Positions 17,203 through 45,460 of a DNA stretch of 64,000 nucleotides are shown piece by piece. The translations under genes and the position numbers were made by a program. Numbering within the stretch: position 1 is the stretch's first letter; each line of letters begins with the position of its first letter. Source of the stretch: Planctomycetota bacterium (lineage in GTDB: Bacteria; Planctomycetota; JAJSAM01; JAJVHW01); the NCBI GenBank assembly GCA_965248445.1, contig CBDFJG010000003.1, forward strand, positions 352,001 through 416,000. Reading direction: 5' to 3'. Below the pieces are notes generated by a model that was given only the letters and a program-made list of their open reading frames with translations, searched no databases and had not been told where the DNA came from.

Positions 17203-17215
17203 GCGGTTACCGCGG

Positions 17216-23088: not shown

Positions 23089-23157
23089 CCGCTCTCTTTC
23101 GAGGTCTCACGAGTGGCACCACCCGCACGTCGGGCGCTTTCGCCTAGAATCGTGGAC

Positions 23158-25319: not shown

Positions 25320-27737
25320 ATGCCGAAGCTGACGTACACCTATGAGGGTGAAGAGCACACCGTCGAGGTGACCGATTCGTGCTCGATCGGTCGAGCCGAG
25401 ACCAACACGGTCCCCCTGGCCAAGGAGCCTGGAGCCTCCCGCCGGCACGCGCAGATCATGAAACTCTCGAAGAGCTTCGAGATGACCGATCTCGGCAGTA
25501 CCAACGGCACCAAAGTGAATGGCAAGACCGTCAAGCGGCACCGACTCGAGCACGGCGACCGCATCTCCATCGGCGAGACACACCTCGTCTGGACGGAGCG
25601 CGAGGACCGCGGAGTCGAACTCGAGGAGGAGATCTCCCTCGACGGCGGCGCCGCGCCCGCCACCAAGACGGCCAACAAGACCGGAGCCGATTGCTACCTC
25701 GTGTTCGCGGGTGGCGATCGCGACGGCGAGCGGATCGCACTGGACAAGTCGCGGGTCACGTTCGGCCGCAAGGCTTCGAACACCATGGTGTTCGAGAGTT
25801 CTTCTGTGTCGGGGTACCACTGCGAGATCTCGCGCGAAGGCGGGGCCTACATCCTGCGCGATCTCGGCAGCACCAACGGAACCCTGCTCGACGGGGAGCC
25901 GGTGACGGAGGTTGCACTCCAGCACGGCGGTCGCATCCGTGTCGGCGATCGCCGGCTCGTGTTCGTCGATCCGTCGGTCAGCGACTTCGAGAAGGCCATG
26001 GCGGCCGTGGACGATCTCGGCTCGGAGTGGGGCATGCTCCGCGCCGAGATGGACATGTCGCGCGTCCAGAAGGCGCGCCGCAGCCAGCTCGTCGGCGTGC
26101 TCGGGCTGTTCGCGATTCTCGCGGCAGTCGGTTACGTGCTGCTGACGAAGCCGGAGTTGTTCTCGACGCCGGCGGTCGAGCTCGAGAACCGCGACGGCAA
26201 CATGATCGACGACCACTCCTTTGAGGATCTAGCGGACGGCTGGGCGGCGGTCAGCGGTTCCCCGGCGCGTGGGGCGTTCGAGAGCGACGGCGCCAAGCAG
26301 GGCTCGGCGGCGTACTCGGTGGCACGTGCCGGCTCGGGCGCGCCGCTGGCGGTCGTCGAGTTCGCCGGACGCACGTACTCGGCTCGCCCGGGCCAGGCGT
26401 ACGAGTTCGGCGCTGCGGCCAAGGCGAGCGGCGGCGGTCGCGCCGCGGTGCGCATCCAGTGGCTGGGTGCCGGCGAAGGCGTCGCGGCCCGCTATGCGTC
26501 CACCACGCTGGTCGAGGGCTCGTCCTGGACGGACGTGTCCGCGATCGCGGTGGCGCCGAAGAACACGACCGGCGTGCGCGTGCAGCTCGTGAACGCCGGC
26601 GAAGGCAAGGCGGAGTTCGACGACATCTTCCTCGTCACCGGCTCGGGGCGCGCAGCGACCGCGACGGACGGTGCCATCACGATCTCCGCCGGTCCGTCCG
26701 GTCGCATCAGCATCAGCCGCGGGTCGGACGTGCTTCTCGACGACGTAGCCGTAGTGGGCGGCCTCTTCGCGACCGCTGCCGACACCGGCGAGCGCGCGGA
26801 GCGGGGTGGCGGCAGTGCTGCTGCGGCCTCCGTGTCGTCCGATGGCGGCGTGGTCGTCAAGGGCAAGGTCATCGATCCCGCGACCGGCGAGGGCGGCGCA
26901 TACTCAGTCACCGTGTCGGCCGAGGGCGGCCGCTACGTGAACATCATCGCCGAACTGCCCGGCGGCGCCGGGCTCGAAGGCATCGTGGCCGCCGGGTTCA
27001 TGGACGAGGGCATCGGCTTCTACACCTCGTCCGGCACGTTCCGCGAGCGCGCCTCCCGCACGGCCAGCGGCGTGCAGAGTGCGACCATCGGCGGATTGAA
27101 CCTCTACGAGGTGTCCAGCGTGACGCCATGCCGCGTCGCGATGACGACCGACTCCGGCACTGCCGTCGCGTTCGGGCCCGCAGAGGGCACGGCGCTTACG
27201 CTGCGCATCGACACCTCCTCCACCGAGATCGTGAAGGCGCGCGATCAGAAGTATCAGGACGCACGCACCGCGGAGCAGACAGGCCGGTACGGCGACGCCA
27301 AGAAGCTGTACGAGGAGTTCGCTTCGAGTCTGCCCGAGGGCGACTCCAAGCGCGTGGAGGCCGAGAAGAAGGCGGCCCAGTTCGCTGCCGACCTCAAGCA
27401 ACAGCTCGACTCGCTGCGCCGCGCGCTCGTGGGCGCGAAGAAGTTCTCGGAGGTTCCCAGCCTCGTCTCCGTGCAGCGCGTGGCCGAGAAGCTCCAGGAC
27501 GAATACGGCGACAAGGGCGCTGAGGGGATCGCGAAGGAAGCGCATGACGCGCTGAAGTCGCTCGGTGCCGCCGACGCGTCGTCGAAGGCGACGCCCCTCC
27601 TGGCGCGCGCTGCGGACTTTGCCAAGTCGAAGATGAACACGCTCGCGCGGCTCTCGTACCAGGACATCGTGAAGCGTTTCGAAGGCACCGAGGCGGCCAA
27701 GACCGCCCAAGAGGCGCTGCGCGCGCTCGGAGAGTAG
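25320..27737 (+). CDS. double-FHA single-pass membrane protein with carbohydrate-binding-like and helical extracytoplasmic domains
   Basis: Two FHA signatures (IGR..SRRHA..DLGSTNGT; FGR..SGYH..DLGSTNGT), one TM, then SFE..W / PGQAYEF / FDDI CBM4/9-like segment; GGAGG RBS. Confidence 0.85.
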   Translation: MPKLTYTYEGEEHTVEVTDSCSIGRAETNTVPLAKEPGASRRHAQIMKLSKSFEMTDLGSTNGTKVNGKTVKRHRLEHGDRISIGETHLVWTEREDRGVELEEEISLDGGAAPATKTANKTGADCYLVFAGGDRDGERIALDKSRVTFGRKASNTMVFESSSVSGYHCEISREGGAYILRDLGSTNGTLLDGEPVTEVALQHGGRIRVGDRRLVFVDPSVSDFEKAMAAVDDLGSEWGMLRAEMDMSRVQKARRSQLVGVLGLFAILAAVGYVLLTKPELFSTPAVELENRDGNMIDDHSFEDLADGWAAVSGSPARGAFESDGAKQGSAAYSVARAGSGAPLAVVEFAGRTYSARPGQAYEFGAAAKASGGGRAAVRIQWLGAGEGVAARYASTTLVEGSSWTDVSAIAVAPKNTTGVRVQLVNAGEGKAEFDDIFLVTGSGRAATATDGAITISAGPSGRISISRGSDVLLDDVAVVGGLFATAADTGERAERGGGSAAAASVSSDGGVVVKGKVIDPATGEGGAYSVTVSAEGGRYVNIIAELPGGAGLEGIVAAGFMDEGIGFYTSSGTFRERASRTASGVQSATIGGLNLYEVSSVTPCRVAMTTDSGTAVAFGPAEGTALTLRIDTSSTEIVKARDQKYQDARTAEQTGRYGDAKKLYEEFASSLPEGDSKRVEAEKKAAQFAADLKQQLDSLRRALVGAKKFSEVPSLVSVQRVAEKLQDEYGDKGAEGIAKEAHDALKSLGAADASSKATPLLARAADFAKSKMNTLARLSYQDIVKRFEGTEAAKTAQEALRALGE

Positions 27738-27745
27738 GAGGAGCG

Positions 27746-29458
27746 ATGGCCTCGGTCGGAACCGGCGTCACGATCGGATCGCGAACGATCCGTGTCGTGC
27801 AGGTGCGCCAGCAGAAGGACGGCTCCTGGCTCGTGGAGTCGGCACTCAGCGCGCCGATGAAGGGACACGACGTGCCCGACGCCCGCCGCGTGGCGGAAGC
27901 GCGGGCCGCGCTCGCGACGTCGGGCGTGAAGGGACGCGCGCTGGTCGGGCTCTCCGGCCGCGACCTGATCGTCCGCTACACCCAGGTGCCTCCGGTTCCC
28001 GACTGGCGCCTCGAGATGCTGATGAACTTCGAGATCCAGGAGGTCTCGGAGCAGTCCGGCGGCGACCTCTCGGCGGACTACGCGCTCCTCGAAGTGGACG
28101 ACACGACGAGCGGCGACAACGTCGTGCTCGTCGCGCTGGCGAAGAACGGCTTCCTGAACCCGCGGCTCGAGGCGCTCAAGGCCGCGGGCCTCGACGTCAT
28201 CGGCGGCTGCCCGCGAGCCGTCGCGGCATTCTGGAGCTACAAGGAGAACGGCCGCCTGCGGCACGACGAGACCGTCGTGATCATGCACATCGGTCACGAA
28301 AACACCGACGTGGCGATCGCGCGGTCGGGTGTCCTCCTGTTCGCGCGCAACGTCGCAGGCGGCGGCAAGATGTTCACCGACTCGCTCGTCGAGAACATGC
28401 GCGTCAACGCCGCGACGGCCGAGAAGCTGAAGATCACCAAGGGCAACCTGACGCCGCGCGGTCGCGCACGCTATCGCGACTCGGGCGAGGAGAAGGTCGC
28501 CAACAACCTGATGGGCGTCGGCGGACACTTCGTCTCCGCGTTCAACTCGTCGGTGATGTTCGCGAAGGCCCAGACCAAGGTGCCGGACTGCAACCCGGAC
28601 CGTCTCGTGCTCATGGGCGGCGGCGCGCTCTTGCGCGGCCTGCCCGAGTACCTCGAGAGCAACCTCGGCGTCCCGGTCGAACTGTTCGACCCGATGGAGG
28701 ACGTCGATCTCGGCGGCCTCACCGCCGAGCAGCAGAACGCGCTGCGCCAGGAACAGGGTGCGATGGCCGTCACGCTGGGTCTCGCTCAGATGGCGGCCGA
28801 CGAGAACGCCATCCACGTCGAGGTCCTGCCCGAAGCGGACAAGAAGGCGCGGCACTTCAAGCAGCACACACTGTGGATGATCCTCGCGGCGGCCCTGCTC
28901 GTCGCCGCGGTCGTCGCTGCATTCGTGCTCGCCGGGCAGGCGCAGTCGCGGGCCGACGCCGAGAAGGAGATCCTCGACAAGCGCAAGACGGACTACAGCA
29001 CGAACTACGCTGAGTACGTCGCGGCGCGCGACAACGTCGCGCGCATCAACAACGAGAAGTACCGGCTGCGGCGGCAGACCGCGCTCGGCCCCGCCTTGCA
29101 GCGTGTGACCGACGCGATCCAGTCGGTCATCAAGGGCGGCAAGTTCGACGAGATCCACGTCGCGGACCTCGCGGGCGCGATGAAGGAAGTCGTGCGCGAT
29201 GGCGAGCGGGACGTGTTCCCCGAGTTCGAGTGCGAGGCGATCGTCGAGTCGACAGGCGGTCGCCCGACGCAGCAGGCGATCACCGAATTCAGCCAATTGC
29301 TGCAGATGAAACTCAAGAGCATGGGTGGCCTCACCTACGACGAGGTGGGGCGTCCGAAGGATCTCGATGGCCAGCGCTGGAAGATGACGTTCCGCGTGCG
29401 CCAGGAGACGTTCCCCGAGAAGGTCGCTGACGAACCAGCGGCCGGCAACGGAGAGTAA
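27746..29458 (+). CDS. PilM-like actin-fold protein fused to a PilN-like TM/coiled-coil domain
   Basis: GVTIGSRTIRVV, IGHENTD, GGKMFT, LMGGGALLRGL.EYL...LGVPVE..DP; then EVLP + TM + coiled coil. Confidence 0.82.
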   Translation: MASVGTGVTIGSRTIRVVQVRQQKDGSWLVESALSAPMKGHDVPDARRVAEARAALATSGVKGRALVGLSGRDLIVRYTQVPPVPDWRLEMLMNFEIQEVSEQSGGDLSADYALLEVDDTTSGDNVVLVALAKNGFLNPRLEALKAAGLDVIGGCPRAVAAFWSYKENGRLRHDETVVIMHIGHENTDVAIARSGVLLFARNVAGGGKMFTDSLVENMRVNAATAEKLKITKGNLTPRGRARYRDSGEEKVANNLMGVGGHFVSAFNSSVMFAKAQTKVPDCNPDRLVLMGGGALLRGLPEYLESNLGVPVELFDPMEDVDLGGLTAEQQNALRQEQGAMAVTLGLAQMAADENAIHVEVLPEADKKARHFKQHTLWMILAAALLVAAVVAAFVLAGQAQSRADAEKEILDKRKTDYSTNYAEYVAARDNVARINNEKYRLRRQTALGPALQRVTDAIQSVIKGGKFDEIHVADLAGAMKEVVRDGERDVFPEFECEAIVESTGGRPTQQAITEFSQLLQMKLKSMGGLTYDEVGRPKDLDGQRWKMTFRVRQETFPEKVADEPAAGNGE

Positions 29459-29464
29459 GCCCCG

Positions 29465-30334
29465 ATGGACGAGATCTGGCAACGCCACAAGGCCTTCATC
29501 CTCCAATGCGTGATCGGGGGCATCGTGTTCCTGATCGCGTGGGGCGTGAAGGCGAACATGTACGACCGCGTCGAGGACGCGCAAGCGACCAACGAGCGCG
29601 CCAAGACGTTGCTCAAGGAGCAACTCAGCGCCGGCAAGGCGCCGTCGCGCAAGTCGATCGCCGAACAGGAGCGCTTGGCCAAGGTCGGGCAGGCGAACTT
29701 CCGCAAGCTCGCAGCGTCCGTCGCGTCGGTTGCCGAACCCGCCGACGGCAAGATCGCGTATGTCCGCGAGAACATCGGCTGGGTGCTCTCGAACATCGGC
29801 AAGCAGTCGGAGCTCGACAGCTTCGTCAACCAATACCGCACGCTGCCGCAAGGCTGCCTCTTCCGGCTGAAGGAGGAGGCACGCGGCGTCCTCGTGGGCC
29901 GGGCCGCGCAGCTCGGGAAGACCGTGGACCGTTCGCTCGGACTGGCGACGGCGTTCACCGACGACGAGGTGCCGGTCGCGCTGCACGGGCTGGCACTCGC
30001 GACGGAGATTGTGACGCGCGCACTCAACTCGAGCGAAGCAGAGGGCATCGACGGGATCCTCGACATGCGCATTGCGCCTCGTCAGCGGCGCAAGGTGAGC
30101 GAGGGCGACGACGCCTCGCGCGTGAACAGCTTCCCGGTGGCCTTCCGCCTGCTCGGCCATCCCGAGGACGTGCACGCGATCCTTCGCTCGTTCAACCGTC
30201 CCGGCGGTTCCGCCATCAAGCGATTGATCGTGCTGGATGCCATCGAGGGAATCTCCCGTCCGCGGGAGGAAGAAGTCACGATCGACGCCCAGATCCGGAT
30301 CCTCGGCCTGCACCACCTGGGCGTGGCGGAATGA
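29465..30334 (+). CDS. hypothetical bitopic protein, positional PilO/GspM equivalent
   Basis: N-terminal TM, coiled coil, alternating beta/alpha C-terminus; follows PilMN. Confidence 0.6.
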   Translation: MDEIWQRHKAFILQCVIGGIVFLIAWGVKANMYDRVEDAQATNERAKTLLKEQLSAGKAPSRKSIAEQERLAKVGQANFRKLAASVASVAEPADGKIAYVRENIGWVLSNIGKQSELDSFVNQYRTLPQGCLFRLKEEARGVLVGRAAQLGKTVDRSLGLATAFTDDEVPVALHGLALATEIVTRALNSSEAEGIDGILDMRIAPRQRRKVSEGDDASRVNSFPVAFRLLGHPEDVHAILRSFNRPGGSAIKRLIVLDAIEGISRPREEEVTIDAQIRILGLHHLGVAE

Positions 30335-30368
30335 TGGCTCGGCGTAGCGGAGTGAGGGAGCCCGTCAG

Positions 30369-33134
30369 ATGAAGAAGGAACAACTGCTCTTGGTCGCCTG
30401 CGCCGTGATTGCGGCGCTGTTCTTCTGGATGAACCTCGGCCTCTACGAAGACGTCAACGCGAGCGAGCTCGCCACCGGCACCGACGTGCCGACGGCTCCG
30501 CCGGTCGAGTACGACCTCTCGGCGGGGCTCGAGGCGCCTCCCGGCGGACGCAGCCTCTTCCAGCCGCAGATCCGCGAAGTGCGCGGCGAACTGCCCGAGC
30601 TCGCGCCGCCGGCGGCTCTGGACCCGACGTGGATCCGCCCGCTGATGGACCCGCCCGCTCCGGCGGCCGCGTGGTCCGAGCTGCGGACGCCGCTCACCAT
30701 CGCGCGGCCCGCCGACACCGGCGACGAGACCGGCAATGAGGACGGCGAGGACGGGGCCGACGGCGAGGATGTCGACTTCGACGAGAACCCGTTCGAGACG
30801 GGTCCGGAGCGCGACATGACGAAGGTCGCGCGCCTCGTCCGCAAGGACGGCAGCGGCGAGATCGCCGTGCTCGTCGAACCGCGCGGCGCACTCAAGGACC
30901 AGCCGGAGTGGCGCATTCTCGAGCTGTGGCCGAACGCCGAGTTCATGGTCACCGAGCTGAACGAGGGCGGCACGCGCCGCGGGACGTGGGTCGGCGATGC
31001 GAGCAGCCTCGCGCGCTACTCGCGATTCGTGCCCACTCGCAACTGCGAGAACGAGTACCACGAGGAGCGCATCCGGCGCGCCGTGCGTGACACGGATCGC
31101 GGCGGACTCATGGAACTCGCGCAGTGGTGTCTCGACACGTTGTCGAAGACGTACGGCACCGAGGCGGTCAAGAAGGCCGTCACGACGCTCGAACAGGCGT
31201 ACGCCGTCAAGGCGGACGCTGCGATCGCCCGCCAGCTCGCCAGCGCGTACAGCGCCGCGTACGACCCCGAGGGCGAGGTGCGCACTCTGCTGCGCTACCT
31301 TGACAAAGAGTCGCGAGACGTGGCGGTCATGCGTGACGCGGCCGACGCTCTCGACCGCGTCGGAATGGGCGGCACGGCGCGCGGACTGTGGGAAGAGGCC
31401 GCCAAGGGCGGCGATCTCGGCGCGTATCTCGGCCTCGGATGGAACAAGCTCGCAAACGGCGAGCTGGATGCCGCTCTCACGGAGTTCAAGCGCGTGCAAT
31501 CCGGCAGCGACCGCGCGCAACTTGCCAGTGCGTTCGCGGGCACGTGCGACGCACAGATCCGGCTGGGCGATTTCAAGGCCGCGGTGGCGGCAGCCAAGAG
31601 CGCGGCTCAGTACACCTCGACGGATCAGGACGTGCTGGCCCGTGCAGGCGCTGCGTACTACTACGCCGGCGACTTCACGACGGCCGAGTCGGTCCTGCGC
31701 AAGGCGGCAGCCGTTGCACCGAACCACGAATCGCGGGCCCGCTCGAACCTCGGCTTCGTGCTGCTGGCCAAGGGAGACCTGGCCGGTGCGCGCGCCGCGT
31801 TCGAGCAGTGCCTGGCAGACGACCCGCTCAACTTCGTCGATCCGCATGTCGGTCTCGGTTGCGTCAATCAGCGCGAAGGCGACCCCGCCGCTGCGAACGA
31901 CTCGTTCGCTGCGGCCCTCAGGGCGGATACGGAGAACGCCTGGATCCGCATGCGCACCGCGACGATGAAGCAGCAGGACGGCGTCCCCAAGGACGCGCTC
32001 ATGCTGGCGCGCGAGACGCTGCAGCGGGCCCCGGGTTCGATCGAGGCGCTGCGCACGGCAGGCGTGGCCGCGGACGACATGGGCGATGGCGACACAGCCG
32101 TCGAGTACCTCGGTCGCGCCGTGGACAAGGCCCCTGACAGTGCCGAGGTCATCTACGAGTTCGGCCGGGCCCTGGCGAACGCTGATCGGGGCAGCCAGTC
32201 CGTGGCGTTCCTCGCGCAGGCGACCAACGTGACGGCGGGCCCGGCGCGCCGCGACGGAAACTGCCTGATCCTCTACGCGTACGCGCTCTACAAGAACCGC
32301 TCGGGACTCGACTCGGTGCTCGACGCGATCCAGCGCGCTAACCGCGCGGCGCAGTCGCCCGCCTCCGGGGCGTACCTGAAGGAGATGCGCACGAAGATCG
32401 CCGACTGGGATGCGACGCGCATCTGGACGGACAACTTCAACCGACAGGCCGACGAGAAGCTCTACAACGGCTGGATCGAGGACGACGACCGTCTCGGCCC
32501 CGCGATCCGGGGCGACGGCACCTCTGCGATCTTCCGCGGCACCATGCGTGCGGTCGCCGATCCGCGCCAGGGTACGTCGATGTCCCGGCCGGGCGACCTG
32601 AAGGGGTTCATGGAGGCGGAAGTCTCGTTCCGGCGCGGCTCCGACACCGAGGTCGTGATCGGTATCTCGATCGGTGCGCTGTCACCGCCTCCGGGCACCG
32701 AAGACCCCGGCAAGCGCCGCGGTGGCCGCAACGTGGGGCACGAACTCGCTCTCGCCGTGGACCGGGACTCCAAGGTCTGGATCTGGGCGACCACGAAGAC
32801 AGGCCGGGGCTCGACCGTCGGTCTCAAGCGCTTTGCGGTCCTAGGTGCCGACGGCGACCAGGTGACGTACCCCGAGGGGACCGACTGGCACACGTGCCGG
32901 TTCGCCCGCACGGGTCCGTCGGACAAGGCGGGATTCGAAGTGTCCTTCGACGGCGGGCTCGTGAGCGCGAAGTTGGAGGACGAGGGCGCGGAGCCCGTGA
33001 GCGCGTTCGAAATCAGCGGTCTGGCGGCCAAGAGCGGGCGGGAGTACACCCTGTCCGTAATCGTTGACGCCGACCGTGGCACGGATGTTGATGTACGAAT
33101 CGACGACGTCACTCTCACGCGGAAGATCAACTGA
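30369..33134 (+). CDS. exported TPR protein with C-terminal beta-sandwich region
   Basis: N-terminal hydrophobic segment, Pro/acidic linker, many TPR-like repeats, beta-rich C-terminus starting WTDNFNR. Confidence 0.75.
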   Translation: MKKEQLLLVACAVIAALFFWMNLGLYEDVNASELATGTDVPTAPPVEYDLSAGLEAPPGGRSLFQPQIREVRGELPELAPPAALDPTWIRPLMDPPAPAAAWSELRTPLTIARPADTGDETGNEDGEDGADGEDVDFDENPFETGPERDMTKVARLVRKDGSGEIAVLVEPRGALKDQPEWRILELWPNAEFMVTELNEGGTRRGTWVGDASSLARYSRFVPTRNCENEYHEERIRRAVRDTDRGGLMELAQWCLDTLSKTYGTEAVKKAVTTLEQAYAVKADAAIARQLASAYSAAYDPEGEVRTLLRYLDKESRDVAVMRDAADALDRVGMGGTARGLWEEAAKGGDLGAYLGLGWNKLANGELDAALTEFKRVQSGSDRAQLASAFAGTCDAQIRLGDFKAAVAAAKSAAQYTSTDQDVLARAGAAYYYAGDFTTAESVLRKAAAVAPNHESRARSNLGFVLLAKGDLAGARAAFEQCLADDPLNFVDPHVGLGCVNQREGDPAAANDSFAAALRADTENAWIRMRTATMKQQDGVPKDALMLARETLQRAPGSIEALRTAGVAADDMGDGDTAVEYLGRAVDKAPDSAEVIYEFGRALANADRGSQSVAFLAQATNVTAGPARRDGNCLILYAYALYKNRSGLDSVLDAIQRANRAAQSPASGAYLKEMRTKIADWDATRIWTDNFNRQADEKLYNGWIEDDDRLGPAIRGDGTSAIFRGTMRAVADPRQGTSMSRPGDLKGFMEAEVSFRRGSDTEVVIGISIGALSPPPGTEDPGKRRGGRNVGHELALAVDRDSKVWIWATTKTGRGSTVGLKRFAVLGADGDQVTYPEGTDWHTCRFARTGPSDKAGFEVSFDGGLVSAKLEDEGAEPVSAFEISGLAAKSGREYTLSVIVDADRGTDVDVRIDDVTLTRKIN

Positions 33135-33168
33135 TCCCGCGGGGTCGGTGAGGACGAAGGAGACGCAG

Positions 33169-33870: not shown

Positions 33871-33884
33871 GTAGGAGAGAGCGC

Positions 33885-35155: not shown

Positions 35156-38100
35156 GTGATCACAAAGTTGCCAATCGCTGATAACCAGATGACCAGTCCA
35201 GGGGCCGGCTCAGGGGCCGATTCAGGGGGTCGGAGGGCCGTCGATCGGGCGTCCCACGAGCGGGAGCGCGGCATCGCGCTGGTGTCCGTCGTGGCGGTCC
35301 TGGTGCTGCTCGCCATCGTCTCCACCCCGTTCCTCGTGAGCATGCGTGACAGCGCGGCCCGCGGTCAGAAGTTCCTCTACTCCGCCCGCGCCGACTGGGA
35401 GGCCGAGAGCCTCTTCGAACGGGTCCGCTCGCATCTGACGCTGTCTCTCGAACACATCGAGCGGCGCAAGCTCGATGACTCCAGCGCCGGCGCCGTGGAC
35501 AGCGGGCGTCCGCCCGACGACGCGACGCCCACCAGCGACACGACCGCCGAGATCACACTGCCGCGCGCGATCCTGGATGAGTTCAACATCGACTCCGCGC
35601 GCGAACAGCGCGTGTGGGACGTCGAGATCGTCGACCTGCAGGGCCGCCTGAACGCGAACAACTGCTCGTACCCGGTTCTGGCCAACATCCTCGGCCGCAC
35701 CGAGCTGGGCGATCAGCTCTCCTCCGATGACAACCGAGTGCCTCTGGTGGACGGCAGCATGTTCCCCGCCGATGGCGGGGTCGTGCGCATCGGCACCGAG
35801 GCGATCAAGTACGAACAGCGCCTCGGCAACGAACTGTCCGGCTGCGAACGCGGCTACCGAGGCGACGTGGCCGGCAACAGCGCCGCCGGTGACTGGGACC
35901 AGGGCGACGTCGTCATCCTCGAGGCCGCGTACCAGATCGCGACGCGTCCGTTCCGCGCGCGGCCGGGCGCGTACGTCCGCTACACCAACATCTACCAGTT
36001 GCGGAGCATCGCCGACCAGGGCGTCGCCGCACTATCGCCCGAGCAGTTCGACTCCCTGCGTCCGTTCGTCACCACGTGGAACGGCAACATCGTCGGAGAC
36101 GGGTGGTCGAACCCGCAAGTCGTCCGCAACGCGATCACCGCCGCCGACTCGTCGCAGCGCTACGCCGACCTCAAGAACAACCGCTACTTCGGTGAGGGCA
36201 CGATCTTCCGTATCACCGACGGCGTGAACGACGACTACGGCGTCATCACGAAGGTGCGCGGCGACAGTCAGGTGCTCCTGGGCGGGAACATCGAGAACGA
36301 CTACTCGGCGGACCAGTCGCGCATGTACTCGCTCGCCCGCTCGCCGGTCAACGTGAACGTGGCCGACGAAGACCTGCTGGCGATCGTGTTCAGCGGGCTG
36401 AAGATGCGCGGCCGCGGCACGGCCATCCCACCCGAGAAGGCGCGGCGCATCGCCAAGCACCTGAAGGAGTGGGTCGTCTCCGACGAGGACGCGCCCGGCG
36501 TGTACCGGAACTGGGAAGACTTCACGAATGCGCTCGAGGCCGCCCGCGACGAGATGGGCATCATCAGCGGTGATGAATTCGAGGCTCTGCTCCGGAACGC
36601 GATGAACGCGAACGACTCGGGCCTCTCGTTCTCCACGGTGCCCTTCGTGTTCCGCTCGTTCGACCTCTATCAGGTCGACGCAACGGCGGCGATCATGGAC
36701 TCGACGGGCCGCGAGCTCGCCCGCCGCGAACTGTCCCGCGTGTTCCACGCTTCGAGCACCCGCTCGGGCACGTTCGTCGTGGAGACGCAGGACGACTTCC
36801 AGCGCCACATCATGAAGTCGCGCGACTCCAAGTGGTTCGCCACGTTCCCCGACAACATCAACGCGTACTACGACTCCCGGAACATCCCCGCGTCCGAGTA
36901 CGAAGCGTTCGCGACCAAGTCGCGCTTCCCGTCGACCAAGCGCTCGGACGCGGACGGGGACGTGCGGCTCCTGCCGGCGGCCTATCGCTTCTCGCCGCAG
37001 GGCACGGCGCAGGGCACGACGGAACGCGTGCACCACTTCGACGAATCGGATCTGCCGGACGGTCTGGATCTCGCGAAGGACGAACTCACATTCACGGTCG
37101 ACGGTCCGTACAGCGTCGAGGACCGCCAGGCCGACATCGTCGACCTCCAGGACATCCCGGGTGTCGGCTCGGGCATCGAGATGGGTCTGAAGGAATTCGC
37201 CTACTCGATGTGGTACCGGCCGGCGTGGAGCCGCAGCGGCAGCGACGAAGTACTGTTCGACTACGGCGCCGAGGGCGACGACTTCAACCGCGTGAGCCTG
37301 CGTTACGACGGCGAGCGCGATGTGCTGCTGCTGGCGGTCGCCGATGCGACCCGCGAGGGGCGCTCGTGCGAGATCTTCTACGAGTTCGACCACACGACGT
37401 GGGACGCCGACCAGTGGTACCACATCGGCGTCAACGTGGCCGGCTGCCACCCCTCGCTCATCGAGCTGTTCATCGACGGTGAGAAGCAGGGCCGCGCGTC
37501 GGGCATCACGCGTCTGACGTCGAACATCGCGCCGACCGGTGCGGTACTCGAGCTCAGCGTCGAGGATGCGTCATCGTTCCCGGACTACGGCGTGGTCATG
37601 ATCCGCGCGGAAGAGGGGATGGAGCTCTTCGAGTACTCCTCGCGCACCGAAGGCTCGTTCATCCTCTCGAAGCGCAAGGCGCGCAACATCGACGTCGTGG
37701 ACGAAGCAGACGAACCGCGCACGCACGTCAGCGGCGCCGTCGTCGAGCTGTACGGGTTCGCCGGGTCGCTGCTGAGCGACATCAAGCGCGGCGGTTCGAC
37801 CACGGACTCGACGTTCGGACCGTTCCGCATCTATCGGTTCCACTACTACGGGCAAGACGTGATGATCGACGACGGGACGATCATCTGCCATGGTCTCGCG
37901 GCGACGACTCAGCACGTGCTCCCGATTGCGGATATCACGCTGACGGAGTGGGATACGGGGTCCGCCGACCAGGACATCTTGGACGATCTCGGACCCACCG
38001 GAACCGAGGGCCTGGCGCTCATCGTCTCCAGGTCGCCGGTGAGGATCATTCCGACCGGCGGCACCACGATCATCATCGGGAACGGCGGCAGCCTGGCCGT

Positions 38101-40375: not shown

Positions 40376-40376
40376 C

Positions 40377-41633
40377 ATGACCCCAACGACACGACTCCGC
40401 GCCGGACCCCGCCCAAGCGGATTTGGGCGTTCAGCCGGTTACACCCTGATGGAGCTGCTCCTCGCAATGGGGCTGTTCTCCTTCCTCGGTGTCGGCATGG
40501 TGGCGCTGCTCTCTCGCGCCAGCGACTTCCTGACGGTTGGCGCGTCGACGGCGGAGACGCTGGATTCGCTCCAGACGTTCACCGAGGCGTTCGGCGACGA
40601 TATCTCGACGCTCTACACGGCGGCGGACAGCGAGACCGGACGTCCCGACGTGCGGCTCTACTCCGACATGGCCACCTGCAAGCTCTCGGACGACAAGGCG
40701 GAGCGCGCGCGCATCCGGCGCCTCTTCTTCGTCCGCCTCATTCCGCGCGAGGGCACGGCTTCGATGACTCGGCGGGCCGGCACGAGCCTCGAGGCCACCG
40801 GCGTGATGGATCAGAAGAACGACAGAGCCGAGGCGGACGACGGACTGTTGCGCGCCACCGGCGGCCTGATGGAAGTCGTCTGGGCGGCCGTGCCGGAGGA
40901 CCCGCAGGACCTCGCACGCATGCGCCTCTATCGCGGCTACCGCAGTCCGATCGGCGGCGTGGGCTCGCTGCTTCCGACGCGCGTCGAGACGGATCGCGGC
41001 GCAACGGTCGGCGAGCGCGGCCCGCGGGATGCAGCCGAGATCAAGAGCGTCGCCGAGCCGATCCTGTCGGGAGTGTTGCACTTCGACGTCGAGTTCTGGG
41101 CACGCAAGACGAAGACCTGGGCGCACGACACGCCAGCCCGCTCGGGCGGCGCACTGCACACCTGGGACTCGTCGCGCGGCATCCTCGGGGCGCTGCCGAC
41201 CCGTGCCCTGTACGACGGCTTCTACCTGGCGAAGGATGCGTCCTCGATCACCGATCCCACGGACGACACGTTCCCGCGGCGCGTGCGCGTCACGCTGGTC
41301 GTCGAGGAGATCGGCGCGAAGACGTCGGTGGGGTACCTGTCCGGGGACCTCGACGACTCCGCGAAGTTCGTCGAGCTCGAGTCCGCGCAGTTCGTTCCCG
41401 CCACCGACACGGCGACCAGGTACGTGAAGATCGGAGCGGAGTGGATCGAGTTCACGGGCGTCGACGGCACCACGCTGATCGGCTGCCGGCGCGGCGTGCG
41501 GGGGACCGAGGCGCTGCCTCACGACGCCGGATCCACGGTGCACCATGGCCGGACAGTCGTGCGCGAGTACGGCATCTCGACCTTCCGCGACACGTATGCC
41601 GACGAGCTCGGCAGCTCGGTTGGCCGCCGATGA
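40377..41633 (+). CDS. GspJ/PilW-like minor pseudopilin
   Basis: G|YTLMELLLAM; FPRRVRVTL late motif; extra C-terminal beta module. Confidence 0.78.
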   Translation: MTPTTRLRAGPRPSGFGRSAGYTLMELLLAMGLFSFLGVGMVALLSRASDFLTVGASTAETLDSLQTFTEAFGDDISTLYTAADSETGRPDVRLYSDMATCKLSDDKAERARIRRLFFVRLIPREGTASMTRRAGTSLEATGVMDQKNDRAEADDGLLRATGGLMEVVWAAVPEDPQDLARMRLYRGYRSPIGGVGSLLPTRVETDRGATVGERGPRDAAEIKSVAEPILSGVLHFDVEFWARKTKTWAHDTPARSGGALHTWDSSRGILGALPTRALYDGFYLAKDASSITDPTDDTFPRRVRVTLVVEEIGAKTSVGYLSGDLDDSAKFVELESAQFVPATDTATRYVKIGAEWIEFTGVDGTTLIGCRRGVRGTEALPHDAGSTVHHGRTVVREYGISTFRDTYADELGSSVGRR

Positions 41634-41688
41634 GTCGAGCCGGGGGCGCGTTCTCGGCGCGGGCAGGTAGAATCCCGGAGGGATGGCG

Positions 41689-42219
41689 ATGAGACCACGA
41701 CCCAAGACAGCCCGTGTGTTGAGCGGGGGCGGCGGATCGAGCGGGGGGTTCACCCTTCTCGAAGTGCTCCTGGCCACGTCGCTCCTGGCGGTGGGGGCGG
41801 TCTCGGTGCTGGTTGTGCTGGCGTCCGCCGCGGGCTTCGCCGCGCAGCGCCAGGGACAGCAGCGCCTCACGCAGGTCCTCGAGGAAGCCCGCAACGACGC
41901 TCGCGCGATCGCGAACTCGTTCCGGCCCACCAAGGACGCGCCGCTCCCCGGCGGTAGCGACGCGACGTTCGAGCCGAAGACCAGCGCGCTCTACATCGGG
42001 TACCAGTGGACGTCGAAGTTCGCCCACGTGGACAACGACGTGCCCGAAGCCGGGTATCGCGTCCGTGTCTCGGTGGTGTACGGCGACGAGCAGGAGCACG
42101 TCGAGAACCTCATCGTCGGAACCGACACGGTGCCCGACGAGGAGTTCCTGACGTCCAGAACGTACGAGGAACAGAAGGCCGGCGAGGCGGATACCTCCGG
42201 CGGCCGCGAGTCGCGCTAG
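41689..42219 (+). CDS. GspI/PilV-like minor pseudopilin
   Basis: G|FTLLEVLLA; short domain with YRVRVSV; GGAGGG RBS. Confidence 0.8.
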   Translation: MRPRPKTARVLSGGGGSSGGFTLLEVLLATSLLAVGAVSVLVVLASAAGFAAQRQGQQRLTQVLEEARNDARAIANSFRPTKDAPLPGGSDATFEPKTSALYIGYQWTSKFAHVDNDVPEAGYRVRVSVVYGDEQEHVENLIVGTDTVPDEEFLTSRTYEEQKAGEADTSGGRESR

Positions 42220-42296
42220 ACGAGTCACAGAGAGCGGGGCGGAAGCGCCGCGCACAGATCGAGTCGCGCATCAGGATGCGAAAAGGAGAACGAGAG

Positions 42297-43790
42297 ATGT
42301 CACGCAGTATTGAATCGTTGCGGGGAATCAGATCGTTGCGGGTTCTCTGCTTGGCCGCGCTCGTGGGCGTCGCCACGCTGGCGCCGCCCGCGCAGGCCGA
42401 CGTCATCGAACTGGCCGACGGCCGCATCCTGCACGGCAAGATCATCGACGGCGAGACGAACGAGGACGGCCTGGCCGTTCAGGTGTTCTCGACCGGTGGC
42501 ACGATCACCATCAGCTGGGACCACGTTCTCGAGTCCCGCCGCAAGCAGTTGCGCATCGACTACGGGATCGACATCCCGGAAGAGGAACAGGTCACGGTCC
42601 CCGGCCACATGGTCACGCTCGTCACCGGCAAGAAGGTGCGGGGCGTCGCCAAGGGCGGAGCCGACGCGCGCCCGCTCGTCCTGAAGACGCGCACCGGTGA
42701 GCAGAGTTACGATGGCTCGCAGGTGGCGGCCGTCGTCGAGATCGGCCTGCCGATCCTCGAGGCCTACACGATCCCCGAGGCCTATGCGCTCCAGGCAGCC
42801 AAGCAGCCCGTCGACTCTGCGTCGGCGCACTTCGCGATGGCGGACTTCAGTATGCGCATCGGCGACTTCGCACACGCCGTCGAGCACCTGAACAGCGCTG
42901 CCGCGGACGGCGATTTCGCGGCCACCACCGATGGCAAGACCATCGCCACGCGCCTGCGCCGCGCGAGCATCCTGCTCGAGGCGGAGGGCGCCCGCAAGCT
43001 GGCCGAGAAGATCAAGTTCGCGATGTACAAGAAGGACTGGAACGACGCGCTGTCCAAGCTGAAGGATCTCGACGGCGACTACCCCGACGAGCAGATCCGC
43101 GGGGCGATCGGCTTCGATCGTCTGCGCTCGCGCGTCGAGAAGGGTCGTGAGAAGCACTTCAAGGCCCGCGTCCAGACGGCGGTCTACAGGAAGATGATCG
43201 ATCTCATGCGCGACAAGGCGCGTCAGAAGAAGGCACTTCGTTCTGACGACGACCGTCCGGGCGCGGCGGTGGCGGGCACGCTCGCCGGCGCCAAGCAGTG
43301 GCTCAACCGCGAGCTGCCCACGCTGCTCTGGGAGGGCGTCGCCTCAGATCTCGGACTCGAGCAGGAGGAGATGGACCGGTTCTGGTCGCAGCGCTCGAGC
43401 AAGCGCCCGCGGATCGGCCTCTACGGCACGGGGTCGTTCATCGTCGTGAAGACCGCAGCCAGATCCGGGGGGGCCAAGCGTCCGCGCCGCCGTCCCCCTG
43501 GTCCCCGGGCCGGCAACAGGGGACCGGGCTCGCAGAAGGAAGCCAAGCCGATGACCGATGAGGGGTGGTGGGCCGGCCGCAAGACCGGCGACCGCGTCAA
43601 GTGGCTGGAGGCCTACTTCGCCAAGAACAGCGGGCTGTTCGAGGTCCTCAGCGTCGACGACACGAAGCTCTGCGACAACTGCGCCGGCGAGGGCATCCTG
43701 ACGGCGGGGTCCGTTGACGGCGGCCAGAACTCGTCGTACTGCCCGAAGTGCAACGGCGCGGGCAAGTTCAGAAGGGTGAGTTATCGATGA
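42297..43790 (+). CDS. secreted hypothetical protein with C-terminal CxxCxGxG zinc finger
   Basis: Signal peptide ending AQA|DVIELADG; CDNCAGEG and CPKCNGAG; AAGGAG RBS. Confidence 0.75.
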   Translation: MSRSIESLRGIRSLRVLCLAALVGVATLAPPAQADVIELADGRILHGKIIDGETNEDGLAVQVFSTGGTITISWDHVLESRRKQLRIDYGIDIPEEEQVTVPGHMVTLVTGKKVRGVAKGGADARPLVLKTRTGEQSYDGSQVAAVVEIGLPILEAYTIPEAYALQAAKQPVDSASAHFAMADFSMRIGDFAHAVEHLNSAAADGDFAATTDGKTIATRLRRASILLEAEGARKLAEKIKFAMYKKDWNDALSKLKDLDGDYPDEQIRGAIGFDRLRSRVEKGREKHFKARVQTAVYRKMIDLMRDKARQKKALRSDDDRPGAAVAGTLAGAKQWLNRELPTLLWEGVASDLGLEQEEMDRFWSQRSSKRPRIGLYGTGSFIVVKTAARSGGAKRPRRRPPGPRAGNRGPGSQKEAKPMTDEGWWAGRKTGDRVKWLEAYFAKNSGLFEVLSVDDTKLCDNCAGEGILTAGSVDGGQNSSYCPKCNGAGKFRRVSYR

Positions 43791-44368
43791 TCTCCGGTTC
43801 GGCCACGCGACGTGCCCTGCTCGCACTGACCGCGCTCGCGGTCCTTGCGTTCCCGCTGACGGCCTCGGCCAAGAGCCCGAAGTCCGGCGAGCGCCCGTCC
43901 GTCGAGCAGTTGCTGCAGAAGCACACGAAAGCCAAGGCCGACGCCGAAGCAGCGGCGATCGAGGCGTCCCGCGATCCGCACAGAGAGACGATCGAGGGGT
44001 ACAAGGACGGCACGACCCCGCTCGCCGACTACGAGGCGCTCATGGAGCTGATCGCCAACGAGAAGGACGACAAGATGCGGAAGTACCGGCGCCCCGCGGC
44101 GACGGCACTCATGGAGCGGTTCATCAAGGCCGGAGCCGACGGCGACGACCGCGTGCGGGAGCTGCGCGCTGCGGCAGTGCTCGAGATCCTGCACCTCATG
44201 AAGTCGAGCAAGAAGGAGACGCTCAGCCTCGCGATCATCCACGACATCCTGAGCGAGTTCTGGAAGCGCAAGATGAGCGACTACAACTTCAAGGCCACGA
44301 AGGAGCTGAAGGACCGGCGCAAGGCCTACAACTCCATGAAGAAGTACCTGCAAGGCCAAGAGCGCTGA
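43787..44368 (+). CDS. secreted helical hypothetical protein
   Basis: ATGA overlap; signal peptide ending ASA; Lys/Glu-rich helices. Confidence 0.7.
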   Translation: MISGSATRRALLALTALAVLAFPLTASAKSPKSGERPSVEQLLQKHTKAKADAEAAAIEASRDPHRETIEGYKDGTTPLADYEALMELIANEKDDKMRKYRRPAATALMERFIKAGADGDDRVRELRAAAVLEILHLMKSSKKETLSLAIIHDILSEFWKRKMSDYNFKATKELKDRRKAYNSMKKYLQGQER

Positions 44369-45460
44369 GTGGCGTCCCGCATCCGCGCACTCTGGCTGTG
44401 CGCCGTTGTCTTCGTCCCGCTCTGTTCGTGCGCGACGTCGCACGTGCCGCCGCCGCCGGCCCCGGTTCTGGTCGATCAACCGGGACGCGCTTTCGACTGG
44501 CCCGCCGACGACGGCGCAGCGCGCTCCTTGCCGCCGCTGCCGAGTGTGACGGCCGCCGCGCCCGCGCGGGCGGGAGGGCTCCCGTCACCGGGCAACGGCG
44601 CGGACGACACGCTGTACGTGATCGGCGGTCGCAGCATCGGCGAGTCGGACCTGGGCCGCTTCATGCTGCGGTACTTCCCGGACCACGCGCGGGAGGCGCT
44701 CATCCAGCTGGTCGACGTCGTGCTCGTGGAGGCGGAGGCAGCGCGCCTGGGCGTCACCGCGGACGAACGGCTCGTGCGGGAGAAGACGTCCGCCTACGTC
44801 GAGGAGCGGGCGCGGCAGACGCGGGAGCAGTACGGGGAGGATGCCCGTCTCTCCGATCTTCTCGAGGAGAAGTACGGGCGAGATCTCGCGAGGTTCACGC
44901 GCGATGCCGAACGGCTGGCCCGCGTCGCCGTGCTGCGCGACGTGCTCGTACGCTACGACCAGGCGGCGACGCCGCGCGCGACCCTCCGGGTGCTCGTGGC
45001 CCCCGACGAGGCTGCCGCGGCGGACCTCGCCGATCGCCTGCGGCGGGGGGCGGACCCGGTGCTCCTGGCGCGCTCGATCGGCATGGAGGAGCCCGTCTCC
45101 CCGCCGCCGCTCGCGCGCGACGAGATCCGGCCCGACACGCTCGGGGCGGCCGTGTTCGGCGCGTCACCCGGGGAAGTGATCGGCCCGTTCCCGTTCACGG
45201 CTGAGGACGGCACCACGTGGTTTCAGGTCGTGCGCGTGGTCGCGCGCACGGACGGAAGTGGCGCCGGCTACCCGACGCTGGCCGAGGCGGTCGGCCGTGA
45301 CATCGCCTCTCGGCCGGTCGGTGTGGACGAGTATCTTGCCTGGCGGCAGCGCGCCCTGGCGCGACGGAGTGTCGAGGTGCGCCGCGAGGCGGGACGGATG
45401 GTCCCGTGGATTGAGAACGCGCCGATTCAGCACGCGCCGCGTTCGGGTGCGTCGAAGTGA
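44369..45460 (+). CDS. SurA/PrsA-like (degenerate parvulin) chaperone, possible lipoprotein
   Basis: L..LVD..L...EA.RLGV SurA N-domain pattern; A..L..G...LA..S and AVF...PGEVIGP parvulin-like pattern. Confidence 0.65.
   Translation: MASRIRALWLCAVVFVPLCSCATSHVPPPPAPVLVDQPGRAFDWPADDGAARSLPPLPSVTAAAPARAGGLPSPGNGADDTLYVIGGRSIGESDLGRFMLRYFPDHAREALIQLVDVVLVEAEAARLGVTADERLVREKTSAYVEERARQTREQYGEDARLSDLLEEKYGRDLARFTRDAERLARVAVLRDVLVRYDQAATPRATLRVLVAPDEAAAADLADRLRRGADPVLLARSIGMEEPVSPPPLARDEIRPDTLGAAVFGASPGEVIGPFPFTAEDGTTWFQVVRVVARTDGSGAGYPTLAEAVGRDIASRPVGVDEYLAWRQRALARRSVEVRREAGRMVPWIENAPIQHAPRSGASK

Follow-up and report, generated by a model that had tools for sequence, protein, structure and literature searches.

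The generic definition of the type IV filament superfamily used here (ATPase, inner-membrane platform, major pilin, secretin, and peptidase) comes from the available text of its principal survey, whose main text does not name the phylum Planctomycetota (PMC6668835). Among the closest described systems is the type II secretion system (T2SS), of whose anchor GspL a fused PilMN is a recognised orthologue (PMC4471445, available part). A PilM-containing locus of Akkermansia is tied to mucin uptake (PMC13174399, available part), and adhesins already described include modular tip pilins that bear lectin domains (PMC8179133, available part). Planctomycete fibres bind dextran, and the accessible text of PMC5394234 describes the uptake system as unidentified; as far as that text and that of PMC12673574 go, it is not known which components carry out macromolecule uptake and engulfment in planctomycetes.

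Here, we describe a cassette of twelve genes at positions 25320-45460 of the window (the whole stretch of 64,000 nucleotides that was analysed), for which no description was found in the literature searched. Within the type IV filament family it is a variant form. The reading that we prefer, and to which we give an even chance, is that it encodes the pilins and the inner-membrane anchor of a retractile capture or uptake filament with a GspG-type fibre and a giant, predicted adhesive tip. The cassette thus offers a defined and widely conserved candidate, with named parts, for planctomycete uptake or engulfment.

Organization of the locus

Twelve open reading frames on the forward strand fill the cassette, and for most of them GC3 is 0.87–0.91, which is of the coding type. 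By coordinates, the gaps between them are 8, 6, 34, 34, 14, 140, 1, 49, 77, -4, and 0 bases, bearing out the sequence-only reading of twelve co-oriented, mostly tightly spaced genes. A profile scan of the proteins returned two FHA domains, PilM_2, TPRs, four N_methyl motifs, T2SSG, a weak LamG, CXXCXGXG, and a weak PPIase. In line with that reading, too, the scanned proteins of the window included no identifiable ATPase, platform, secretin, or prepilin peptidase.

A conserved block on the same strand (17093..24876) lies upstream and encodes an asparagine-synthase-like amidotransferase, a membrane and TPR protein, and a sigma-54 activator; in relatives it forms a bridge between the cassette and the twin secretins described below. 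The cassette is flanked by housekeeping genes (prfA, rpmE, purL, accA, clpPX, tig, scpB, lexA, rplS, trmD), and its GC content (0.66–0.70) is like that of the rest. A prophage or island was rejected because of these flanks and this composition.

The pilins

Four of the pilins (G, H, J, and I) have G↓F/Y-x-x-x-E starts. The fifth, K, starts RG↓IALVS and lacks Glu5, as is usual for GspK. The major pilin G (33169..33870, 209 residues when mature) keeps the GxYP, DxWGNP, and QLxSxGPDG..DD motifs in an alignment of 14 rows. Its best PDB match is PulG (5wda, E 1.3e-15), its C-terminal motif matches GspG only (29jd, 1t92), and it scores 42 bits on TIGR01710 against an equivalog cut-off of 88.85. Judged by these motifs and matches, it is a GspG-type major pilin, a T2SS feature, and the PilA type of the type IVa pilus (T4aP) was rejected on the same evidence. 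In the T2SS such a pilin forms a short periplasmic pseudopilus, an observation that counts against a capture filament.

The minor pilin at the GspH position (33885..35015, 359 residues when mature) appears to carry a LamG/ConA-like domain; its scores on TIGR01708 (22.4 bits) and PF13385 (17.2 bits) are both below cut-off. That the LamG matches are below cut-off also speaks against capture. The small GspI-type pilin (41683..42219, 156 residues when mature) was assigned by alignment, with 20.2 bits on TIGR01707, again below cut-off. J (40377..41633, about 397 residues when mature) contains one inserted barrel. Its AlphaFold model (pLDDT 91.6) resembles XcpW (Z 12.5), EpsJ (Z 12.4), and GspJ (Z 11.8), with rmsd 3.4–4.0 over 147–154 aligned residues, and by this model J has the GspJ fold, a second T2SS feature. 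With its GspG motifs and a J that folds like GspJ, the pilin set is T2SS-type.

The giant K and the phage-tail-like barrel

Translation of K most likely starts at 35156 because homologues begin at the matching residue, and this start gives a protein of 1,739 residues (35156..40375), so the very large tip subunit proposed from the sequence stands. K scores 25.7 bits on the GspK model NF037980 (cut-off 130) and matches XcpX (5vtm_X, E 0.05) in two motifs. Its predicted make-up is a K core with a LamG-like region and no fewer than four barrels of the phage-tail type. Scored with an iterated barrel HMM, copy 1 lies within the core (residues 180-259, 35693..35932, 58 bits), copy 2 at residues 783-864 (37502..37747, 38.7 bits), and copies 3 and 4 at residues 1434-1494 and 1495-1593 (39455..39934, 39.4 and 48.9 bits). 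Neighbours of K in the Atlas are 1,367 and 1,707 residues long, and LamG occurs in 19% of one cluster. The family, of about 1,700 residues and without a Pfam match, comprises at least 524 clusters at 50% identity (E<=1e-30).

The barrel of J (model residues 301-376, 41325..41552) superimposes over 74 residues on phage tail structures, namely 8jov_1 (Z 9.9, rmsd 2.0), the tail tip of phage Chi (Z 9.6, rmsd 1.7), and the JBD30 tip (Z 9.1, rmsd 2.0). At the sequence level it shares 39% identity with Pelagibacter phage tail tube B (E 6e-4), 73 of 111 J homologues match the PHROG tail family phrog_1101, and PHROG virion structural, baseplate, and tail families are matched by 5–9 of 18 C-terminal halves of K. 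A beta-barrel of 75 residues is therefore common to phage tail proteins, J (one copy), and K (at least four), a structural module found both at phage tail tips and in pilins at the tip of a bacterial filament. The shared fold by itself demonstrates no function.

The main rival to the capture filament, which we consider unlikely, is a T2SS-like exporter. Its short periplasmic pseudopilus would use the giant cap to pick out large folded substrates, perhaps hydrolases or the zinc-ribbon protein below, and drive them through a secretin, with PilMN as an ancestral-type GspL. All five pilins are T2SS-type, the order L-M-C-position-G-H-K-J-I resembles gsp operons, PilMN is a GspL orthologue, and the sequence of K suggests that, like GspK of the T2SS, it provides its own terminal strands (concept in the available part of PMC13533445). 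However, the 1,200 extra residues of adhesin-like modules in K suit a surface role.

Anchor, membrane, and accessory proteins

The cassette opens with a protein of 805 residues (25320..27737) in which two cytoplasmic FHA domains (PF00498, 129 bits over two stretches) precede one membrane span, a CBM4/9-like domain (PF02018, 23.5 bits, below cut-off), and a helical C-terminus. Both FHA domains retain the phosphothreonine-binding G-R, S-x-x-H, and N-G-T residues, which in FHA1 are invariant in 11 of 11 rows. Control by Ser/Thr phosphorylation is plausible from these residues; no kinase is encoded inside the cassette.

The anchor is a PilM-PilN fusion of 570 residues (27746..29458) equivalent to GspL. 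It matches PF11104 (PilM_2) over profile positions 1-336 of 340 with 77.8 bits (cut-off 27), and its PDB matches are PilM (3jc8, E 1.5e-18; 2ych, E 4.4e-15) and, over residues 6-362, the PilM-PilN peptide fusion 5eou. An INLLP-like linker motif precedes the membrane span, and the score on TIGR01175 is 99.8 bits against a cut-off of 133. On sequence grounds this is a PilM actin-like protein with a PilN peptide, a T4aP feature. A GspL with a truncated actin-like domain was rejected, given the full-length PilM profile, the PilM structures matched, and the absence of any GspL match in Pfam, NCBIfam, or PDB.

Directly downstream, in relatives as well, is a membrane protein of 289 residues (29465..30334) that had been labelled PilO; it is PilO-like only in its position (that of PilO or GspM) and membrane anchor, and it has no Pfam, NCBIfam, or PDB match. 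At the GspC/PilP position, a membrane-anchored TPR protein of 921 residues (30369..33134) matches TPR families and no GspC or PilP family in Pfam or NCBIfam; its gene keeps its order across relatives. Three genes follow the pilins. The first (42297..43790) encodes an exported protein of 497 residues, in no named family, with a signal peptide, a TPR-like repeat, and a C-terminal zinc ribbon whose four cysteines are invariant in 13 rows; its Atlas clusters are unnamed and most commonly from Planctomycetota. The second (43787..44368, 193 residues) encodes a small exported protein without a family assignment, with homologues in genomes of the same taxonomic family and order. The third, kept after the zinc-ribbon gene in relatives, encodes a PpiC/SurA-like putative lipoprotein of 363 residues (44369..45460; PF13145, 18.1 bits, weak).

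Conservation across the Planctomycetota

A profile of J matches 182 of 301 genomes of the phylum (60% of those sampled), including genomes of 2.1–2.9 Mb, and the named relatives are Planctomycetota. Gene order is kept across distant families; in genomes G024 and G086 the cassette is scattered. K is present in 48 of 49 J-positive genomes vs 2 of 31 J-negative ones, and the zinc-ribbon protein in 35 of 45 genomes with a strong J match vs 4 of 31 J-negative ones. In 33 of those 45, no more than about 12 kb separates K from the best PilMN match. The neighbourhood, whose loss in relatives would have told against the sequence-only reading, is thus conserved; the cassette is lineage-restricted, as that reading held, but broader than "lineage-specific" implied.

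This breadth bears on a further, quite improbable explanation, an apparatus for contact, predation, or surface motility, in which the filament, the FHA-TM and TPR proteins, and ExbBD form an envelope-spanning gripper of prey or substrate with a parts list analogous to myxobacterial Agl-Glt or Kil. FHA-TM, TPR, and ExbB/ExbD components do co-occur with the cassette, tip modules are shared with phage host-contact proteins, and the mechanisms of engulfment and crawling in the phylum are stated to be unknown (PMC12673574, 10.1101/817700, available parts). Yet no known predatory habit is as widespread as the cassette, GltG and GltE are matched in FHA and TPR regions only and far under cut-off, and no Tad-family match was found.

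Motor, platform, secretin, and peptidase elsewhere in the genome

Every part of the generic definition is present in the genome, and with parts counted genome-wide the cassette belongs to the type IV filament superfamily. The genes that the sequence-only reading had proposed to look for were all found elsewhere: a single PilD (G000:C3:1055.6k), a pilB-pilT-pilB operon (C3:737-742k), an orphan PilC (C4:722k), and two TPR-secretins (C3:972k and 985k). We infer that pilB-pilT-pilB, this PilC, and the TPR-secretins are the motor and secretin partners of the cassette. The candidate ATPases are of the PilB/PilT type, and PilT passes TIGR01420 (433.6 vs 319.1). In favour of the exporter, the 346 bits of the orphan PilC on GspF exceed what it reaches on PilC models; against it stand the PilT in the putative motor, the 76–79 bits of the twin secretins on GspD (TIGR02517, cut-off 351), and a separate T2SS in the same genome with its own gspDEFGHIJ, normal-size GspK, and GspL-like PilMN. 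On PilQ, the twin secretins score 78–91 bits vs 284. No PilY1 (PF05567) match was found in the genome, nor in 14 controls.

The pilC orthologue occurs in 79 of 80 genomes, in a near phylum-wide pilB-pilT-pilB-pilC operon. In non-carriers of the cassette the operon is followed by a different G-H-I-J-giant ORF set (G058, G083, G017, G081), or pilins are absent after pilC (G028, G063). Among carriers, no pilin was flagged downstream of it in G049, G162, and G086, and a K-like ORF lies just upstream in G086. This pilC is within 30 kb of the cassette in none of the 45 strong-J genomes. All five carriers checked hold three full-length PilC/GspF genes and several ATPases, so that assigning the motor by elimination is not decisive. 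It is very unlikely that the cassette is merely an accessory pilin set for the canonical T4aP or T2SS: no motor gene is linked to it and each genome has several systems, but a major pilin and an anchor are part of the cassette itself, the three platforms and three PilM-family genes of a genome agree with a count of three machines, and the other systems come with their own pilins. The T4aP, for example, has its own parts, pilMNOPQ with pilD-pilT-pilB-pilC-pilA.

In 10 of the 45 cassette-bearing genomes a twin-type secretin is found no more than 30 kb from PilMN or K, and the co-oriented order secretin-TPR-exbB-exbD-secretin-asnB-TPR-sigma54-FHA-PilMN is found in G087, G213, G072, and G027. The twin TPR-secretins usually flank exbB/exbD genes, and the best ExbB match adjoins a twin-type secretin in 31 of 45 strong-J genomes; an ExbBD motor may thus be paired here with the secretin of a type IV filament. 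Non-carriers also have twin secretins and exbB. A second PilMN paralogue adjoins the twin secretins (199–257 bits on Amuc_1101 vs 129 for the cassette PilMN), and the secretins and exbB may serve this paralogue instead. In favour of a capture filament are the pilin types, the conservation of the cassette, the secretins linked to it in some genomes, the motor operons that lack neighbouring pilins in the carriers checked, the separate parts of the other two systems, and the literature on lectin-bearing tip pilins, dextran-binding fibres, and the Akkermansia locus. The unlinked pilC, the pilin-free operons of G028 and G063, the K-like ORF upstream of the motor operon in G086, the twin secretins and exbB of non-carriers, and the scattered cassettes of G024 and G086 weigh against it.

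Proposed mechanism

As a capture filament, the cassette would work as follows. Pilins would be matured by the single PilD, and the fibre nucleated by I-J-K with H. PilMN and the PilO-position protein would couple it to the pilB-pilT-pilB motor and the orphan PilC, and it would exit via one or both TPR-secretins. LamG-like domains on H and K may bind glycans, and the barrels, like those of phage tail tips, may serve for binding or as stiff spacers. Surfaces, polymers, or cells would be captured and then pulled to the envelope as PilT retracts the fibre. More speculatively, exbB/exbD between the secretins might power gating or import, and assembly might be gated by phosphothreonine binding of the FHA protein. 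A broader conjecture, which we regard as doubtful, is that a single ancient envelope machine is common to the Planctomycetota, in which a PilT-retractable pseudopilus feeds twin TPR-secretins with an ExbB/ExbD proton motor, and that lineages have exchanged whole tip cassettes on it. The present cassette would then be the version that carries phage-tail-tip modules and is controlled by FHA, and this machine would supply the molecular basis, so far missing, of capture of macromolecules or prey by fibres in the phylum.

Comparison with known systems

Tad and the Kil apparatus of Myxococcus comprise a Flp pilin, TadA/B/C, and RcpA. The cassette proteins have no Tad-family match in Pfam or NCBIfam and the ATPases are PilB/PilT type, so membership was rejected; the earlier analogy with Kil reduces to the shared FHA domain. 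The Verru_Chthon cassette of Verrucomicrobia, a multi-copy set of four pilins in a PVC lineage, likewise combines a giant K-like pilin with I/J/H-like pilins. To our knowledge it lacks PilMN, FHA, and G, and no Verru_Chthon family was matched at E<=0.01 in an NCBIfam scan whose library may or may not include those models.

Akkermansia Amuc_1098-1102 (MUL2) belongs to the same superphylum and is linked to polymer uptake in the literature. Amuc_1101 is the best NCBIfam match of PilMN (129 bits, cut-off 650), and the secretin at 972k matches Amuc_1098 (86.7 bits, cut-off 750). Membership in these families was rejected on those scores (86.7 and 69.9 vs 750 bits for the secretins). MUL2, in contrast, is described with four genes and without a G/H/I/J/K set, and Amuc_1101 is more closely matched by the second planctomycete PilMN paralogue.

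Modular minor pilins (S. sanguinis PilB/PilC, Thermus ComZ, ETEC CofB, Caulobacter CpaL) also have modules grafted on or into a pilin, and LamG/ConA modules are a known type. Here, however, modules occur together in three of the five pilins, K has twice the 860 residues given as the extreme for modular pilins in the available part of PMC8179133, and phage-tail-like barrels are not mentioned for them in that part.

With the T4aP and MSHA (MshDOPQ), the cassette shares the PilM fold with its PilN peptide motif, PilT and an MshEN-bearing PilB in the putative motor, and a large (here predicted) adhesin at the tip. It differs in its GspG-like major pilin, the fusion of PilN, the lack of an identified PilP or PilQ, and an adhesin mass grafted on K, not on a separate PilY1/MshQ.

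With the T2SS (Gsp/Xcp/Eps), it shares a GspG-type major pilin, the GspJ fold, GspK motifs, the H/I/J/K set, and a one-chain anchor equal to GspL. Unlike the T2SS, its anchor has a full four-subdomain PilM-type actin domain, K is five times the normal size, J and K carry barrels and H a LamG-like domain, a TPR protein takes the place of GspC, FHA and zinc proteins are added, the putative motor has PilT and two PilB, and the linked secretins score far below the GspD cut-off. The "hybrid" of the earlier reading is a weaker claim than it was made out to be: T2SS-type pilins do occur with a PilM-type anchor, but this is no chimera by itself, because fused PilMN is a GspL orthologue and NCBIfam already has a family of fused PilM-like proteins from Akkermansia (NF045709). 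What matters as a trait of the T4aP is PilT in the putative motor.

Cassette organization and flanking genes

The twelve genes of the cassette all lie on the + strand at window positions 25320-45460 with short gaps, as read from open reading frames, and the co-oriented, mostly tightly packed cluster described in the sequence-only reading is confirmed. Family scans detect two FHA domains, PilM_2, TPRs, four prepilin motifs and a zinc motif, together with weak matches to GspK (in K), LamG (in H) and PPIase. The flanks are housekeeping genes and GC content is uniform across the window; an origin as a prophage or island was therefore rejected. No sigma-54 site with two or fewer mismatches was found upstream of the FHA gene, and sigma-54-like matches across the window number 38, against 47.9 expected. 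The search for sigma-70 promoters returned none, and terminator-like sites occur at chance frequency and at positions inside genes.

The block before the cassette (window 16414-24876) encodes a GT2 glycosyltransferase, an asparagine-synthase-like amidotransferase, a multi-membrane and TPR protein, and a sigma-54 activator. The last three are kept upstream of the cassette in distant families; the activator often carries an N-terminal FHA domain in relatives, which is absent here. This block could serve as a modifier or regulator of the pilins. After the cassette, window 45258-52368 holds scpB, a SurA/PpiD-like gene, lexA and a gene for a TPR lipoprotein, an order shared by all four family-level relatives compared. 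Elsewhere, PurL and a PurS-like domain occur within one chain (6935-10063), and a HEAT-repeat and VWA protein lies near an MlaD/ABC transporter set (61072-62463).

Conservation and taxonomic range

The neighbourhood proposed from the window proves to be conserved. Retrieval through PilMN gave 15 related loci, all from MAGs, with titles naming Planctomycetota or Planctomycetia in 14 cases and an "uncultured bacterium" in one. In nine relatives compared by tblastn, the order FHA-PilMN-PilO-TPR-G-H-K-J-I-Zn-(small)-lipoprotein-scpB is preserved within the stretches fetched, some small genes falling below threshold in the two most distant, and distant families show this order again in full or in part. 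Every J homologue with a taxon in its source name is from Planctomycetota, as are the few named cassette homologues; the genome-wide profile counts cover this phylum.

A J profile built from 15 rows matches 182 of 301 genomes sampled evenly across the phylum (E<=1e-20), and wholly J-negative families exist (0/16 in f6 and 0/17 in f15). Co-distribution was read in 80 of 300 genomes, hand-picked at about one per family, a non-random set in which kin are not independent: 45 have a strong J match (E<=2e-38), 4 a weak one and 31 are negative. K is present in 48/49 J-positive and 2/31 J-negative genomes, and the zinc protein in 35/45 strong, 1/4 weak and 4/31 negative ones. In 33 of the 45 strong-J genomes the best PilMN match and K are about 12 kb apart or less. 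The 12 others include contig breaks, genomes in which K alone is relocated (G041, G072 and G162) and genomes in which the cassette is scattered with no close PilMN (G024 and G086). In another genome, G020 (L068:15548-18058), the cassette PilMN is split across two frames by a frameshift or an assembly error.

The PilMN anchor and FHA domains

PilMN spans the entire PilM profile and matches Myxococcus PilM, Thermus PilM and the PilM-PilN peptide fusion 5eou; its linker is INLLP-like in the alignment. The alignment has 32 rows, with the genome's own canonical PilM row mis-framed, and served only as the source of quoted motifs. The PilM tree from 32 rows has an unresolved base, unsettled bootstrap and no outside references, and no origin is drawn from it. 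The phosphate-1 Asp is replaced in all six PilM rows from this order and retained in most distant rows; the phosphate-2 Asp is likewise replaced (PilM domain, window 27746-28350). Loss of both residues suggests altered nucleotide binding by the domain.

The sequence-only reading had taken the locus for a hybrid, with a T4aP-type PilM placed beside GspG/K pilins. The full PilM anchor stands, but it does not by itself make the locus a chimera: PilMN is the recognised GspL orthologue, according to a passage in PMC4471445. The cassette can therefore be read as L-M-(C position)-G-H-K-J-I, its actin domain being of an ancestral type. Both FHA domains retain the phosphothreonine-binding residues, so phosphoregulation through FHA is possible.

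The pilins and the phage-tail-like barrel

GspG motifs are present in G, whose best match among solved structures is PulG. The predicted model of J (pLDDT 91.6) matches XcpW, EpsJ and GspJ in a structure search (Z 12.5, 12.4 and 11.8). K shows two GspK motifs against XcpX (E 0.05), and its profile does not match the J of the genome's own gsp locus. T2SS-like secretion is a function to be weighed beside these matches, and we regard it as rather unlikely.

The core of K appears, from sequence alone, to end near residue 531 and to be followed by about 1,200 residues including a LamG-like region; the nested architecture (accessory residues 538-1735) has the same basis. Its family forms 524 clusters at 50% identity (E<=1e-30), and among the top 150 most members are 1,500-1,950 aa. 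A search for longer forms gave only two 3,500-aa YHYH proteins (P0278, P0279) with short K-profile matches. Against PDB sequences, the C-terminal half of K and the PilO-position protein returned nothing specific, and the zinc protein returned TPR matches only, also nothing specific. A PilY1 search found no match in the genome, nor in the control set, which makes the control uninformative.

Residues 301-376 of J form a separate beta-barrel in the predicted model. Its matches are the phage GP4 portal-tail protein (Z 9.9), the phage Chi tail tip (9.6), a Vibrio phage capsid protein (9.4) and the JBD30 tip protein (9.1), with rmsd 1.7-2.0 over 71-74 residues; unrelated barrels score Z <=5. Sequence matches agree with this phage-tail likeness: 73 of 111 J homologues match the phrog_1101 tail protein, 5-9 of 18 K C-terminal halves match virion, baseplate or tail families, the isolated barrel matches Pelagibacter phage tail tube B (39% identity), and there are matches to 80 viral models at E<=0.001. 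With an iterated barrel HMM, four copies are detected in K and a single one in J, and the remaining proteins among the 4,350 predicted for this genome have none; long K homologues mostly carry 4-6 copies (119/122 counted). The directional term "phage-derived" was rejected, since capsid and ATPase N-domain folds share the barrel at lower Z. In a non-carrier (G058:C1:2681342-2681542), the part of the J profile that covers the barrel also picks up an unrelated 661-aa frame. This match, together with those in the two YHYH proteins, raises the possibility that the module moves between large surface proteins.

Candidate motor, platform and secretins

The ATPase, platform, secretin and peptidase not seen in the window all have matches elsewhere in the genome: 11 T2SSE-family ATPase matches, 7 secretin matches, three full-length PilC/GspF proteins plus divergent ones, and one PilD, besides 3 PilM-family genes. 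Assigned to systems, these parts make up a canonical T4aP and a T2SS that has a normal GspK and a GspL-like PilMN of its own. Left over are pilB-pilT-pilB (C3:737-742k), an orphan pilC (C4:722k) and a pair of TPR-secretins on either side of TPR-TPR-exbB-exbD. Partners of the cassette are inferred from linkage and elimination among these.

Close relatives of the orphan pilC occur in 79 of the 80 genomes. Motor neighbourhoods were read at 11 loci, from four carriers and seven non-carriers. Three carriers have pilB-pilT-pilB-pilC with no pilin flagged downstream, and the fourth has pilC alone. Of the non-carriers, four have a different G-H-I-J set plus a giant ORF after pilB-pilT-pilB-pilC, one has small pilins there and two have none; the barrel HMM finds no barrel in these other pilin sets. 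In the four with the different set (L106-L111 and L114-L115; G058, G017, G083, G081), the pilins are large, at 200-700 aa, and the giant ORF at the K position has no Pfam match in the parts scanned. Two observations argue against the motor assignment: pilC never adjoins the cassette, and in the elimination test five of five carriers have three platforms, so that elimination does not decide the motor. Beside this stands the reading of the cassette as an accessory pilin set, which we consider very doubtful.

Near-identical 466-aa ORFs, probably transposases, lie at C3:735315-736715, where pilB-pilT-pilB ends, and at C4:723411-724811, where the orphan pilC starts. Their presence at both pieces suggests a recent rearrangement that broke up the motor operon. 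The canonical T4aP locus has a 460-aa ORF with many genome copies, probably an insertion sequence, between its pilM and pilN (C3:944931-946313).

The twin secretin locus (C3:972231-987827) contains two TPR-bearing secretins around two TPR genes, exbB and four exbD-like genes. Ten of 45 carriers, drawn from eight families, have secretins of this type no more than 30 kb from the cassette. Direct reading of G087, G213, G072 and G027 shows the order secretin-TPR-exbB-exbD-secretin-asnB-TPR-sigma54-FHA-PilMN, part of which is also present in G041 and G049. Counting against the assignment, twin secretins and exbB occur in non-carriers too, often beside a second PilMN paralogue nearer Amuc_1101. This paralogue, closer to the Akkermansia protein, is found beside two or three TPR-secretins in many phylum genomes (L116, L120, L139-L144). 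The best ExbB match adjoins a TPR-secretin in 31/45 carriers and several non-carriers, and the secretin-ExbBD pairing is worth study in its own right.

Proposed mechanism

In the proposed mechanism, PilD would cleave all five pilins, and I, J and K with H would initiate a fibre of G. PilMN and the PilO-position protein would couple PilB and PilT via PilC, and the fibre would exit through a TPR-secretin. It would present a tip of about 2,600 residues with two LamG-like regions and at least five barrels, and PilT would retract it. We give an even chance to a filament for capture, adhesion or uptake; a machine for predation or motility seems improbable.

Comparison with known systems

Planctomycete uptake machinery is called unknown in passages of PMC12673574 and PMC5394234. 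Planctomycete papers name T4P or T2SS genes only in general terms in the portions of text available (10.1101/817700, PMC6906331), and PMC11481906 mentions none. No description of the locus was found in the literature, supplements aside; some of its genes may be listed in the pilus gene tables accompanying 10.1101/817700 or in the T2SS table that belongs to PMC6906331. Modular tip pilins are already known (PMC8179133), and it is likewise known that the sheet of K can be completed in cis or by PilY1/MshQ (PMC13533445).

The cassette resembles a type IV filament in its proposed working and falls within the generic definition of one, as worded in a section of PMC6668835. It differs from each of the systems compared: its anchor lies outside T2SS by the GspL criterion, and the cassette lies outside T4aP by the PilA criterion, outside Tad by its defining tests and outside the Akkermansia Amuc_1098-1102 families by their membership tests. 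Support is good for the parts list and for the phage-tail-like modules, and the cassette is a real and widespread variant within the type IV filament family, one that has apparently not been described before.
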